From UHGV virus genome UHGV-0183130: DNA of 40,647 nt. One strand, 5' to 3'. A program made the position numbers and the translations under genes. Below the pieces are notes generated by a model. It did not search any database, was not told the DNA's origin, and saw only the letters and a program-made list of their open reading frames with translations. This DNA comes from a virus. Below are positions 32,670 through 34,951 of the stretch, piece by piece (position 1 is the first letter of the stretch; each line of letters starts with the position of its first letter).

Positions 32670-33221
32670 TTATTTCTCCATACTCGAAGAGTTGTTCGCC
32701 AAGGCGCCCGGAGCTGCACACTCGCGGGCGTCACTCTTTTCAGCGACACAAAAAACTCGATACAGAAGCGTTACGTGCTCCTGGAACTTAGCGATAACCT
32801 GATAGCTGTTTTCCTCAATCTGACCACGCTCATCTGCGTCAATTACCCCATCAGCCGTGGCTTTACGTACAAAATTCGAATGACGGCCTATCCATTCGAT
32901 GGACTCCATCAGGCGCTGATTTATATCGGCGTTATCCAGATCATCAACATCTGCCAGTGGTACAAATACGCCCTGAGAATGGCGCGCAACGGCATCAGCG
33001 ATATGAGTTGAACCACCAGCACGTTGTAAAACCATTGCCCAGCCCAGTGGGAAGATCTGGTCGCCGTCAACACGAAGGCGGTTAAACAATGCGTTCTCTG
33101 TCACGCCCAACCATTCCGCCGCCTCGGCATAACCACCAGGTAGATCGGTGATCGTTTTTTTTATCGCCGCTACCAGCCAGGCTGGCTGACGTTCGACTTT
33201 CCAAATAGGTTCGTTACCCAC
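32670..33221 (-). CDS. CII-position HTH regulatory protein (YdaT/CII-like), function uncertain
   Basis: 183 aa immediately after cro; GTG start with AAGGAG SD; HTH-like segment GGYAEAAEWLGVTENALFNRLR. Confidence 0.4.
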   Translation of the reverse strand: MGNEPIWKVERQPAWLVAAIKKTITDLPGGYAEAAEWLGVTENALFNRLRVDGDQIFPLGWAMVLQRAGGSTHIADAVARHSQGVFVPLADVDDLDNADINQRLMESIEWIGRHSNFVRKATADGVIDADERGQIEENSYQVIAKFQEHVTLLYRVFCVAEKSDARECAAPGALANNSSSMEK

Positions 33222-33243
33222 GGCTTACTCCTTTTTCCTGTGG

Positions 33244-33447
33244 TTACTGGTTAGCAGATACGCCTGTAACCTTGTGATATAGGGATGCGTCATACTTAAG
33301 TTTCCCATTAGTAATTCTCTCTATTACGAAGGCTTGCTTCTCAGGGATGACCTTTCCCCAACGACATACGGCAGGGTGTGAGATATTCAAAGCAACAGCG
33401 GTTTTAGAGATACCGCCAAAATGCTTTACGACTTCGGACTTATACAT
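33244..33447 (-). CDS. cro: Cro-like HTH repressor
   Basis: 67 aa, divergent from cI across the operator region; HTH-like SKTAVALNISHPAVCRWGK; SD GGAGG. Confidence 0.65.
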   Translation of the reverse strand: MYKSEVVKHFGGISKTAVALNISHPAVCRWGKVIPEKQAFVIERITNGKLKYDASLYHKVTGVSANQ

Positions 33448-33539
33448 AGTTCCTCCGGTGTGATGAATGAACCAAAGGTAACAAAAGGTACATTAAATAG
33501 CAAACAACAGTTACAAGCAAAGGGTGTAACATTGGTTAC
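33448..33539. promoter_or_regulatory. Right operator / divergent promoter region (OR, pR and pRM candidates)
   Basis: Contains AAAGGTAACAAAAGGTACATT (33474-33494), a motif repeated twice downstream of cI, and perfect palindrome GTAACATTGGTTAC (33526-33539) abutting the cI ATG (short-leader cI message possible). Confidence 0.55.
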
Positions 33540-34199
33540 ATGAAAACAGAGATGAAAGACCGCATCAGATCCAGACGAATCCAGCTGGATATAACCCAAT
33601 TAGCACTGGCTAAAAAGCTTGGTGTAAGCCGTGTATCGGTTACAAAATGGGAAAACGGCACGACAAAGCCTGATGGTGAGAACCTTCACCAGTTGGCTCA
33701 GGCTCTATCAACAACACCAGAGTGGATACTCTATGGAAGCGGTGATGAGGCCATTGACGACACGCGCGTCGTGCCTTTTTTGAAACCCCCTGTAGCTGTA
33801 CCGATCATATCGGCAGTTCAAGCCGGTTTATGGACGGATAGCTATGCCTGCTCAAGACTTACAGACGTGATTTCCTGGACTCAAACAACTGCAAATGTAT
33901 CGGATGAAGCGTTTGGGTTAGTAGTCCGCGGTGAGTCGATGACTAACCCGCAAGGACTTCCATCTATACCAGAAGGTTCTATTGTTATAGTCGAGCCCCA
34001 TTATGGGCAGCTTGATGATCTATATGGGAAAATAGTCGTTGCTATATTGGATGGGACATCAGAAGCAACGGTTAAAAAATTAGTTTGGGATAGCCCCTAC
34101 TCATACCTAATGCCACTGAATCCGTTATTTAAGCCAATCCAAATTGATGGTAACTGTCGCATTGTCGGAAAAGTTGTACAAATCACTCAAAACATTTAA
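33540..34199 (+). CDS. cI: CI-like repressor (HTH_XRE N-domain plus LexA/S24 autopeptidase C-domain)
   Basis: 219 aa; N-terminal HTH (ITQLALAKKLGVSRVSVTKWENG), C-terminal S24 features (VRGESM serine region, KK pair); divergent from cro. Confidence 0.85.
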   Translation: MKTEMKDRIRSRRIQLDITQLALAKKLGVSRVSVTKWENGTTKPDGENLHQLAQALSTTPEWILYGSGDEAIDDTRVVPFLKPPVAVPIISAVQAGLWTDSYACSRLTDVISWTQTTANVSDEAFGLVVRGESMTNPQGLPSIPEGSIVIVEPHYGQLDDLYGKIVVAILDGTSEATVKKLVWDSPYSYLMPLNPLFKPIQIDGNCRIVGKVVQITQNI

Positions 34200-34213
34200 T
34201 CCCTTCAAAATTA

Positions 34214-34240
34214 AGAGCCGAGCATAGCCTCGGCTTTTTT
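34214..34240 (+). terminator. Rho-independent terminator after cI
   Basis: AGAGCCGAG-CAUAGC-CUCGGCU hairpin (7-bp stem) followed by UUUUUU, 15 nt after the cI stop. Confidence 0.65.
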
Positions 34241-34244
34241 ACAT

Positions 34245-34340
34245 TCCCAAAGGTAACATAAAGTACATTACTCGCTTGACCGCAAAGGTAACTAAAGGTA
34301 CATTTAAATCATCAAACGTAATCATTGGTACGTTTGGTGA
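34245..34340. promoter_or_regulatory. Left operator region (OL) with candidate pL
   Basis: Two further copies of the OR motif (AAAGGTAACATAAAGTACATT 34249-34269; AAAGGTAACTAAAGGTACATT 34284-34304) plus GTAATCATTGGTAC; candidate -35 TTGACC (34276-34281) and -10 TACATT (34299-34304) with 17-bp spacer. Confidence 0.5.
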
Positions 34341-34367
34341 GGATAACAAATGCCTTGTACCACTATT

Positions 34368-34415
34368 CTGGCGGCCCGGTGTTTTCCCACTTGTCCGGTA
34401 ACCGCCAGCCTTTTT
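34368..34415 (+). promoter_or_regulatory. Structured leader hairpin with U-tract just downstream of candidate pL
   Basis: CTGGCGG (34368-34374) pairs with CCGCCAG (34402-34408) around an inner CCGG/CCGG stem, followed by CCTTTTTC; lies inside a doubtful 77-aa ORF (34350-34583). Confidence 0.4.
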
Positions 34416-34579
34416 CAAGGCACAACAGAAAAGGGCATCACCGGGCGACGGGCTCATAACCCAATCCACCCGGGCAAAAAGAAAGCGGTCTCTGCAAGCC
34501 GCCGACCAATGCAGGTGCCCTTCTCTGTTGTGTATGGAGAAAGTTCGGCGGTTGCAGCCGCCTTAACGAGGGTAAAACC

Positions 34580-34951
34580 ATGAGTAATGACCGCATGACC
34601 GTAGTGCCAGATTTTCTTGGCGAACTGGATGCCGGCGTGTTCATGAACAAAATCGCGGCAGCACTTAATACTACCGCGCTTGGCGTTCTGAACAACGGCA
34701 ACAAAGGCAAAGTAGTCCTCACATTTGATTTTGAGCGTATGGGTAATTCCGTTGAAGAGAAGCGCGTGAAGATCAAGCACAAGCTGAACTACAGCACCCC
34801 GACACCGCGTGGTAAAGCCTCCGAAGAGGACACAACCGAAACCCCGATGTGGGTCAACAAAGGCGGGAAGCTAACCATCCTGCAGGAAGATCAGGGTCAG
34901 CTGTTCGGGATCACTGGCGCGGTGGATGGAAAGCTTAAAGCGGCACAGTGA
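34580..34951 (+). CDS. Hypothetical early protein (YfdP-like by size and position)
   Basis: 123 aa, SD GAGGG; first convincing gene of the early-left operon; no N-like arginine-rich motif recognised. Confidence 0.5.
   Translation: MSNDRMTVVPDFLGELDAGVFMNKIAAALNTTALGVLNNGNKGKVVLTFDFERMGNSVEEKRVKIKHKLNYSTPTPRGKASEEDTTETPMWVNKGGKLTILQEDQGQLFGITGAVDGKLKAAQ

Follow-up and report, generated by a model that had tools for sequence, protein, structure and literature searches.

The window, by which is meant the whole 40,647-nucleotide stretch of viral DNA analysed here, contains a cI-like repressor gene (33540..34199, + strand; 219 aa) that is divergent from a cro-like gene on the - strand (33244..33447; 67 aa), the two being separated by an intergenic region of 92 bp. 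A CII-like gene of the CP76 family (32670-33221) adjoins cro. The repressor is composed of an N-terminal HTH_3 domain and a C-terminal Peptidase_S24 domain (Pfam E-values of 4e-16 and 6e-22, respectively). When compared with structures in the PDB, residues 5-67 match the N-terminal domain of the P22 c2 repressor (1adr, 2r1j and 3jxb; E ~1e-13), the protein also matches the 434 repressor (E 2e-9), and its C-terminal domain matches that of lambda cI. In the alignment, residues Ala95-Gly96 (VQA95-G96) correspond to the cleavage site of lambda cI (A111-G112), and Ser133 and Lys180 to its catalytic dyad (S149 and K192). The cro-like product belongs to the P22_Cro family (PF14549, E 3e-22) and matches the P22 Cro structure 1rzs (E 3e-12).

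A first-pass annotation of this DNA had described a 21-bp motif, AAAGGTAACNAAAGGTACATT, occurring once between cro and cI and twice beyond the cI terminator, and a search of the full 40.6 kb recovers exactly these three copies. With up to three mismatches allowed, matches are found only at 33474-33494 (no mismatches), 34249-34269 (two mismatches) and 34284-34304 (no mismatches), all on the + strand and none at unrelated positions, against a chance expectation of 0.00 from 100 shuffles. The shorter pattern GTAA-N7-TAC has seven distinct sites in the window, five of which lie in the immunity region (33478, 33526, 34253, 34288 and 34318). The palindromes said to flank cI are likewise present on both sides, the variant GTAACATTGGTTAC at 33526-33539 having perfect arms and GTAATCATTGGTAC at 34318-34331 being imperfect. 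A symmetrised 18-bp weight matrix scores five strong sites at 14-27 bits, with the rest of the window reaching no more than 6.6 bits. The core common to all five is GTAAY-N4-GKTAC, set within an 18-bp pseudo-dyad of 7+4+7 bp whose symmetric consensus is ATGTAAC-N4-GTTACAT; the half-site table gives aaaKGTAMC on either arm, and at the four central positions the information content falls to 0.45-0.72 bits. Taken together, the matrix and the GTAA-N7-TAC search define five strong sites and one weak site, distributed over the regions termed OR and OL below.

Three of these six sites are located between cro and cI. ORa (AGGTAACAAAAGGTACAT, 33476..33493; 26.3 bits) is an 18-bp operator lying within the spacer and -10 of a candidate PR on the - strand (33475..33503), which comprises a -35 TTGCTA (33503->33498), a 17-nt spacer and a -10 TACCTT (33480->33475), with a predicted start near 33468. 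A consensus promoter scan with a cut-off of 9/12 does not call this element, which falls below the cut-off. TTGCTA-17-TACCTT is preferred as PR because both hexamers are invariant in 17/17 loci (the window and the 16 relatives described below) and its geometry mirrors that of PL and of the tool-called PR of a homologous phage; the assignment is thus made by inference and analogy. A competing assignment, TTGCTT-17-TTTAAT, was rejected, as its -35 position varies in relatives (GTGGTG, TATTAG, ATCAAT and others) and its -10 also lacks an A at position 2. The second site, ORb (AGCAAACAACAGTTACAA, 33499..33516), is a candidate weak operator, whose centre is 23 bp away from that of ORa and 25 bp away from that of ORc, with its weak half on the PR -35 and a strong half, GTTAC. 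Its score of 5.6 bits is not in itself significant and lies below what shuffled sequence can reach, and on the weight matrix alone the site was rejected. It is kept as a mere candidate because of its position, its conservation and its counterpart in the homologous phage; in the relatives it is near-invariant, the sole change in the strong half being GTTAC to GGTAC in one locus (L008), which is within the K degeneracy.

The third site, ORc (GTGTAACATTGGTTACAT, 33524..33541; 22.2 bits), is an 18-bp operator with perfect 6-bp arms that shares 2 nt with the cI ATG and includes a candidate PRM -10, TAACAT (33527..33532, + strand), proposed from sequence. The predicted PRM start, at ~33539-33540, coincides with the A of the cI ATG, such that the cI mRNA is likely to be leaderless. 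No Shine-Dalgarno sequence precedes cI, and the first 21 nt of the gene are ~96% conserved, compared with ~80% for the remainder. ORb is centred near -32 of this proposed PRM, unlike lambda OR2, which is centred near -42 of its PRM, and therefore activation of PRM from the middle site in the manner of lambda does not obviously fit.

Downstream of cI, an intrinsic terminator (34213..34240, + strand) is formed by a 10-bp stem, a 6-nt loop and a T6 run (dG -13.8 kcal/mol, z -5.0). This hairpin was seen on folding and is not listed by a consensus scan of the + strand, probably because a G-U/A-U extension of the stem consumes the T-run; relatives retain a hairpin and T-run at the same position with differing stem sequences. 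The first downstream motif begins 49 nt past the cI stop codon, and the ORF listing holds no plausible reading frame between cI and the downstream sites. The earlier proposal that OL lies about 50 bp from the end of cI without intervening rex-like genes is supported, the 49 nt containing the terminator. A rex-type cassette between the cI stop codon and OL is absent from the window, from its relatives and from phage L, and its absence is normal for P22-type phages.

The leftward operator region follows directly. OL1 (AGGTAACATAAAGTACAT, 34251..34268; 22.8 bits) is positioned 8 bp upstream of the -35 of PL, a promoter called by the scan at 9/12 (TTGACC-17-TACATT, 34276..34304, + strand), of which TTGAC and TACATT are kept in relatives. 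OL2 (AGGTAACTAAAGGTACAT, 34286..34303; 26.9 bits) extends through the PL spacer and 5 nt into the -10, and its form GGTAACTAAAGGTAC is the same in 14/15 loci. OL1 is also present in the relatives, at a distance from OL2 of 35 bp (34 bp in four loci), with a centre composed only of A/T (AAAA, ATAA, AATA, TTTT or TAAA). The third site, OL3 (ACGTAATCATTGGTACGT, 34316..34333; 14.2 bits), falls at approximately +5 to +22 of the PL transcript. At 30-32 bp from OL2, a third OL site turns up in three distinct downstream settings, namely that of the window and L005, that of L001, L002 and L004, where it is inverted (GTACCGGTAGTTAC), and that of L014 (GTACCAATAGTTAC); it is missing in relatives that have a structured RNA element after PL. 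Searches of Rfam returned nothing relevant in the window and two relatives at the gathering threshold, or in 33200-34700 at E up to 1. The PL leaders of the window and its relatives show no likeness to HK022 put when compared with 24-31 kb of HK022, and a second copy of the leader element was not found in the PR operon.

The comparison set is composed of 16 related loci (17 with the window) from ~10 enterobacterial genera, including Kluyvera, Klebsiella, Escherichia, Buttiauxella and Edwardsiella, with cI identities of 75-99%. Across this set the OR block is conserved at 98-99%, ORc at 95-97% and OL2 at 95%, in contrast to ~80% for coding DNA and ~45% for the spacer after the stop codon. ORa has the same sequence in 15/17 loci, with a column conservation of ~99%, and the core of ORc is kept in 17/17. 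Because the motifs are conserved in 16 loci and overlap promoter hexamers, the first-pass view that they are operators on both sides of cI, with OL and PL beyond the terminator, is retained as their best explanation.

A homologous switch of different specificity is found in Escherichia phage Lys8385Vzw, whose cI is 51% identical and whose immunity region is uncharacterised. It shares the gene order and site architecture of the window, including a cI terminator. Three OR sites are spaced 22 and 25 bp apart, the third overlapping the cI ATG by 2 nt; OL1 lies upstream of the -35 and OL2 in the spacer and -10, again 35 bp apart. Both PR (TTGACA-18-TACATT) and PL are called by the promoter tool, the end of an operator forming the -10 TACATT, and a TAGGAT is located at the same distance from the ATG as the candidate PRM -10 of the window. 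The counterpart of ORb is ATGTCAAGAATCCTACAT, with its weak half coinciding with the PR -35. The operators themselves are clear 18-bp palindromes of the ATGTAGGATATCCTACAT type (ATGTAGG-ATAT-CCTACAT), unlike the half-sites of the window. The recognition helices also differ, being VNRVTVTGWE in the cI of Lys8385Vzw versus VSRVSVTKWE in that of the window, and IKHPSVSEW versus ISHPAVCRW in Cro. Both window helices are invariant among the relatives, and the helices co-vary with operator sequence between the two specificity groups.

The region displays divergent cI and cro genes, a repressor with HTH and S24 domains and operators placed on the early promoters, the overlap with PR resting on the promoter assignment given above. 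A lambdoid temperate phage or prophage of the P22 type probably has its immunity region here, and the repeated motif would serve as the cI operator; most likely, the P22-type Cro also binds the same sites. Judged by their sequence, the operators are of the ordinary two-fold symmetric 18-bp P22/lambda type and carry an immunity specificity that is new by sequence, a full-text search of 8 million papers having returned no match to the operator strings. Each operator would present a 7-bp half-site, ATGTAAC, an A/T-rich 4-bp centre that is probably uncontacted, and an inverted half-site, together accommodating one repressor dimer.

From this arrangement a scheme of regulation can be proposed. Reading from cro to cI, ORa would occupy the PR spacer and -10, the weak ORb the PR -35, and ORc the PRM -10, the start and the cI ATG; transcripts of cI would end at the intrinsic terminator, beyond which OL1 and the PL -35 come first, OL2 overlies the spacer and -10, and OL3 follows the start. 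In the lysogen, cI bound to ORa/ORb and OL1/OL2, probably cooperatively, would keep RNA polymerase off PR and PL. This repression would be lifted by RecA-stimulated self-cleavage at Ala95-Gly96, and Cro on ORc would then shut off cI. The sequences directly show the sites, their restriction to this region, their conservation, the protein families and the PL hexamers; which protein acts at which site, the PR and PRM assignments, the cooperativity and the leaderless cI mRNA are inferred.

A refinement of this reading, tentative and on balance doubtful, divides the operators into two classes, such that A-type sites (GGTAAC, an A-rich centre and RGTACAT; ORa, OL1 and OL2) would be high-affinity cI sites and B-type sites (GTAAC-ATTR-GTTAC; ORc, with OL3 related and less regular) would be the ones favoured by Cro, and the resulting switch would be more categorical than that of lambda. 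In support of this, each class can be told from the other and keeps its position across relatives, the A-type on the cores of PR and PL, ORc on the start of cI and OL3 downstream of the PL start. Furthermore, P22 repressor binds sites with A-tract centres ~3-13 times more tightly than those with T/A or C/G centres (PMC4267663). However, ORc fits the symmetric consensus better than any other site and might therefore be the one that cI binds most tightly, OL3 is missing in many relatives, and lambda, 434 and P22 achieve the same order of affinities through subtle differences between sites.

A related proposal, which is unlikely, gives a function to the conserved asymmetry of the A-type sites, the repressor or Cro reading them unlike the symmetric ORc-type sites. 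The A-type sequence, GGTAAC, A-tract and GGTACAT, always has the same + strand orientation, whether the site lies at PR, at PL or upstream of PL. If the asymmetry were functional, two operator classes or head-to-tail contacts with 10-bp repeats would separate cI and Cro occupancy, and the genetic switch would be encoded by the type of site and not by small differences in affinity among near-identical sites.

The first-pass annotation had gone further and regarded the motif as direct-repeat half-sites unlike the palindromic operators of lambda, a claim that the comparison does not support. The only feature common to the five strong sites and their orthologues is the dyad GTAAY-N4-GKTAC, whose second half reads GTTAC (inverted) or G/AGTAC and never GTAAC; the orientation of the G/AGTAC half is ambiguous because GTAC is self-complementary. 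The corresponding model, in which the repressor reads two units arranged head to tail, AAAGGTAAC and AAAGGTACA, at a spacing of 10 bp, in the manner of P2-family C repressors, is very improbable. It draws on the three A-type sites of the window, which share + strand orientation and fit 7/9 as a direct repeat versus 6/9 as a dyad, being only pseudo-symmetric; in numerical terms the direct repeat does as well as the dyad at these three sites, with 6.6 versus 5.7 of 9 at ORa and 6.1 versus 6.0 at OL2. The P2-family repressor fold also superposes on P22 c2, and the A-type sites do look directly repeated. On the other hand, OL3 does not fit and neither does ORc, an inverted repeat that matches 6.9/9 as a dyad versus 3.1/9 as a direct repeat, and GTAAC is never directly repeated at any site in any locus. 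The upstream AAAG is replaced in relatives by ACAG, ATTG, ACTG or TCAG and is not kept in orthologous OL1 and OL2, the OL1 centre varies among A/T tetramers with natural TTTT variants also pointing against the model, and the third OL site is inverted in L001, L002, L004 and L014. P2 C is a protein of 99 aa with no S24 domain, and each of its 8-bp repeats, spaced at 22 bp, takes up one dimer (PMC2995052), unlike the apparent 10-bp units and the 219-aa c2/cI-type S24 repressor of the window. The direct-repeat model was therefore rejected on the basis of ORc, the inverted OL3 orthologues, the variable AAAG and OL1 centres and the palindromes of the homologous Lys8385Vzw switch.

That the motifs are conserved merely as promoter elements, or through recent divergence, and are not protein binding sites is extremely improbable. 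ORa and OL2 do overlap -10 hexamers and spacers, and the loci are related to each other, but OL1 (before the -35), OL3 (past the start) and ORc (on the cI ATG) share one 14-bp core, flanking non-coding DNA and synonymous sites are conserved at ~45-80% versus 95-99% for the sites, and the recognition helices co-vary with the operators between the specificity groups. Still less credible is the idea, drawn by analogy with lambda CII, that GGTA-N6-GGTA direct repeats are sites for the CP76-type activator encoded next to cro: the lambda CII repeats are TTGC-N6-TTGC, whose spacing the 10-bp period here would match, but the sites lie on the lytic PR and PL cores and the cI ATG and not at an establishment promoter directed towards cI, ORc as a perfect palindrome is at odds with this idea, and the homologous Lys8385Vzw switch is palindromic. 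Recognition of direct repeats by lambda cII is documented (PMC2995052).

The preferred reading, of ordinary two-fold symmetric operators bound by cI and probably by Cro, places the region closest to P22 and phage L, although with a specificity of its own, the half-site of the window being ATGTAAC and that of P22 ATTTAAG. The nearest solved relatives of the two proteins include the P22 c2 N-terminal domain and P22 Cro, beside the 434 repressor and the lambda cI C-terminal domain, the operators are pseudo-symmetric 18-bp sites with an A/T-rich 4-bp centre that is free to vary, and the terminator and OL/PL directly follow the repressor gene without rex, the distance from the c2 stop codon to nutL in phage L, which is P22-type, being ~150 bp. 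P22 repressor binds six rotationally symmetric 18-bp sites, of which the central 4 bp are uncontacted (PMC4267663). The window differs from P22 and phage L in that its cII is of the CP76 type and neither the ORF list nor Pfam shows an evident N or gene-24-like antiterminator beyond PL; its cI shares ~36% identity with the c2 repressor of phage L, among the matches listed.

In common with lambda, cI and cro are divergent, with three sites ~23-25 bp apart between the genes and three at PL, the repressor has an S24 C-terminal domain with an Ala-Gly site and a Ser/Lys dyad, a terminator follows the immunity transcript and cI is likely to have a leaderless start. Lambda operators are, however, 17 bp long versus the 18 bp with a 4-bp centre found here, and rexA/rexB are absent between the cI of the window and OL. 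The OR-OL separation of ~0.8 kb is also shorter than the ~2.4 kb of lambda, whereas the OL1-OL2 distance of 35 bp exceeds the lambda spacing of ~24 bp by roughly one helical turn. The middle OR site, near -32 of the proposed PRM, constitutes a further difference. The 434 repressor belongs to the same HTH_3 fold family, and the 434 operator, whose outer bases are conserved and whose centre is not contacted and prefers A/T, is 14 bp long, as is the core of the window sites (GTAAC-N4-GTTAC); the 434 half-sites read ACAA and flank a 6-bp centre, and the cI of the window shows low sequence similarity to 434 repressor.

By sequence and comparison, an operator set, probable promoters and a terminator are thereby defined for a group that has no operator description in the literature searched. 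This immunity group spans at least 10 enterobacterial genera and includes prophages from clinical strains of Klebsiella and E. coli. With the operator set defined, co-immunity and superinfection exclusion among these prophages therefore become predictable. The operator variants of the related loci also form a clean natural series with which direct and indirect readout of the P22 type can be studied, and the general picture of how a lambdoid switch works is left unchanged.

A cro-like ORF (33244-33447, minus strand; Pfam P22_Cro), with a CP76-type cII as the next gene, is separated by a 92-bp gap from a cI-like ORF (33540-34199, plus strand) that carries HTH_3 and Peptidase_S24 domains. Among solved structures, the N-terminal domain of cI is nearest to that of P22 c2 (E about 1e-13), with 434 repressor second, and Cro is nearest to P22 Cro (1rzs). 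In its C-terminal domain, cI aligns to lambda cI, matching at the VQA-G cleavage site, at the GESM serine and at the KK lysine. The 21-bp motif AAAGGTAACNAAAGGTACATT, which the first-pass annotation had placed once between cro and cI and twice after cI, matches at 33474, 34249 and 34284 only (up to 3 mismatches, both strands, 40,647 bases); the window-wide search proposed in that annotation thus yielded no further copies, and shuffled sequence gave 0 matches. Five of the seven distinct window sites of a looser core, GTAA-N7-TAC, lie in the immunity region (33478, 33526, 34253, 34288 and 34318), and a symmetrised 18-bp weight matrix scores these five at 14.2-26.9 bits, the best elsewhere in the window reaching 6.6 bits. 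The first downstream motif lies 49 nt past the cI stop codon, with a hairpin between, where OL had been placed ~50 bp past the end of cI and after its terminator. As motif counts, matrix scores, distance and intervening hairpin all agree, that observation is correct as written. The absence of rex-like genes between cI and OL, also pointed out there, holds and is the ordinary state of P22-type phages. The hairpin itself (34213-34240), followed by T6, is a clear plus-strand intrinsic terminator of cI (folding dG -13.8 kcal/mol, z -5.0); a consensus terminator scan reported it on the minus strand only, probably because its G-U/A-U stem extension consumes the T-run.

Candidate 18-bp operators are designated ORa, ORb and ORc between cro and cI, and OL1, OL2 and OL3 downstream of cI. 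ORa, OL1 and OL2 (A-type) have A-rich centres; ORc is B-type, with OL3 related but less regular. The half-sites had initially been read as direct repeats ~10 bp apart, a reading that is now disfavoured, though not disproved, relative to a dyad. The half-site aaaKGTAMC, read outward-in, occurs on each arm in all five strong sites, and the symmetric consensus is ATGTAAC-N4-GTTACAT, with four central positions low in information. Taken alone, ORa and OL2 score about equally as direct repeats and as dyads, and A-type sites can be read both ways because the GTAC of the partner half-site, G/AGTAC, is self-complementary. However, the arms of ORc (GTGTAACATTGGTTACAT) are perfectly inverted, and its direct-repeat match is just 3.1/9. 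GTAAC is found in direct repetition in none of the loci, its partner being GTTAC or G/AGTAC; the upstream AAAG is replaced in orthologous OL1/OL2 by ACAG, ATTG, ACTG or TCAG; the OL1 centre varies across orthologues (AAAA, ATAA, AATA, TTTT, TAAA); and four related loci (L001, L002, L004 and L014) carry the third OL site in inverted orientation. The P22 repressor, the closest characterised homologue, reads rotationally symmetric 18-bp sites whose central 4 bp are uncontacted, binding tightest on A-tract centres (PMC4267663), whereas P2-type direct-repeat repressors, of 99 aa and with 8-bp repeats 22 bp apart, fit the cI and sites of the window in neither protein size nor repeat spacing (PMC2995052). 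In the OL2 region of Klebsiella phage ST13-OXA48phi12.2, three half-sites recur every 10 bp (GGTAAC-TAAA-GGTAC-ATTC-GGTTAC), which would amount to two overlapping operators with a common self-complementary GTAC half. A full-text literature search gave no match to the half-site sequence. In principle, cI and Cro could be distinguished through the asymmetry conserved in A-type sites, or through the division into A-type and B-type, but this appears improbable.

Megablast recovered the module (~74% nucleotide identity) from two phages each of Klebsiella and E. coli and from 21 E. coli chromosomes, and a one-genome-per-species scan added 12 loci with cI 75-99% identical, from Kluyvera (99%), Pseudescherichia, Buttiauxella, Mangrovibacter, Phytobacter, Kosakonia, Edwardsiella, Superficieibacter and Klebsiella. 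In an alignment of 16 sequences (the window plus 15 loci), column identity is ~80% in coding DNA, ~45% in the spacer past the cI stop codon, 98-99% at 33476-33514, 95-97% at 33526-33560 and 95% at 34288-34301; on sequence grounds, the regulatory sites stand out as a clean phylogenetic footprint. The order 3' of cI (hairpin and T-run, OL1, TTGAC, GGTAACTAAAGGTAC, ATT) recurs in all relatives but one with incomplete context, and the hairpin keeps its structure with a different stem sequence. In the closest relative, from Kluyvera sichuanensis (NZ_JABBJF010000028.1; cI 99% identical), ORa, ~62 bp upstream of cI, has two changes, one turning GGTAC of the invariant core into GGCAC and the other turning ATT into ATC; these may be operator-weakening mutations or a sign of prophage decay. 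One enterobacterial-type immunity region (cI 88% identical) lies on a 420-kb contig of an assembly labelled Chryseobacterium sp. (CACSKA010000005.1), which is probably mislabelled or contaminated.

The early promoter PL was called by the promoter scan on the plus strand (TTGACC 34276-34281, 17 nt, TACATT 34299-34304), with OL2 (34286-34303) inside it. By analogy, TTGCTA (33503-33498), 17 nt and TACCTT (33480-33475) on the minus strand would be PR; the pair falls below the scan threshold, both hexamers are invariant in 17/17 loci, and ORa is positioned relative to it as OL2 is to PL. ORb (33499-33516; AGCAAACAACAGTTACAA), which overlaps the candidate PR -35, scores only 5.6 bits, but is supported as a candidate by its exact spacing (23 and 25 bp from neighbouring sites), its near-invariance among relatives and the fact that the sole change to its strong half (GTTAC becomes GGTAC in one locus) is tolerated at other sites. 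For cI, the only conserved -10-like hexamer is TAACAT (33527-33532), 7 nt upstream of the 33540-33560 block, which would put the transcription start roughly on the first base of the ATG. With this start, no Shine-Dalgarno ahead of the ATG, and unusual conservation of the first seven codons (33540-33560, ATGAAAACAGAGATGAAAGAC; ~96% at the nucleotide level across genera versus ~80% in the rest of the gene), the cI mRNA is likely to be leaderless, like that of lambda, and the 5' coding region appears constrained. Lambda-style activation of the cI promoter, PRM, from the middle OR site is doubtful, since ORb would be centred near -32, not near -42 as in lambda.

The more distant Escherichia phage Lys8385Vzw has the same layout, although its cI is only 51% identical and the recognition helices of both cI and Cro differ. 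Its OR sites (1429-1446, 1451-1468 and 1476-1493) are spaced by 22 and 25 bp, the third overlapping the cI ATG by 2 nt, and 3' of cI a terminator precedes OL1 and OL2, 35 bp apart. The predicted operators, ATGTAGGATATCCAACAT and similar, are plainly palindromic. The promoter scan called both PR and PL (TTGACA-18-TACATT); in each, the spacer is filled by an operator whose last five bases form the -10. The weak half of the middle OR site is the PR -35 (TGTCAA), matching the overlap at ORb. Sequence comparison thus identifies a homologous switch of different specificity.

Downstream of PL, the predicted transcript has a strongly structured, 270-nt untranslated leader (34311-34580; MFE -107 kcal/mol, z -4.5), the first convincing gene starting at 34580. 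The leader has no Rfam match; an overlapping 77-aa ORF (34350-34583) has no Pfam match and may be non-coding. The leader core (34421-34475) recurs at ~91% identity in many lambdoid phages that differ in other respects (SfV, SfIV, mEp460, Stx2c phages, Lys8385Vzw), unannotated or beneath 'hypothetical protein' annotations. Relatives without OL3 have, directly after PL, a conserved element of ~63 nt (CAGCGAACAGGCAGGACGCCC...GGATGATTCGC; L006 2270-2345, also L007, L009-L013, L015 and L016), absent from the window, with compensatory changes at four base pairs. It is also present, unannotated, in ST64B, SfII, SfV, ZF40 and Yersinia phages YeP1-3, and resembles the HK022 putL antiterminator RNA in position but not in sequence.

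In the proposed mechanism, cI dimers at ORa/ORb and OL1/OL2 would occlude PR and PL, ORc would serve autoregulation and Cro repression of cI, and the terminator would keep cI transcription out of the PL operon; prophage induction would follow RecA-dependent cleavage at Ala95-Gly96. The 23-, 25- and 35-bp spacings have nearly equal helical phase (~0.2-0.4 turn past an integer), which would be consistent with lambda-like cooperativity between pairs of sites. The region belongs to the lambdoid cI/Cro switch family and has proteins and a predicted operator geometry of the P22 type.
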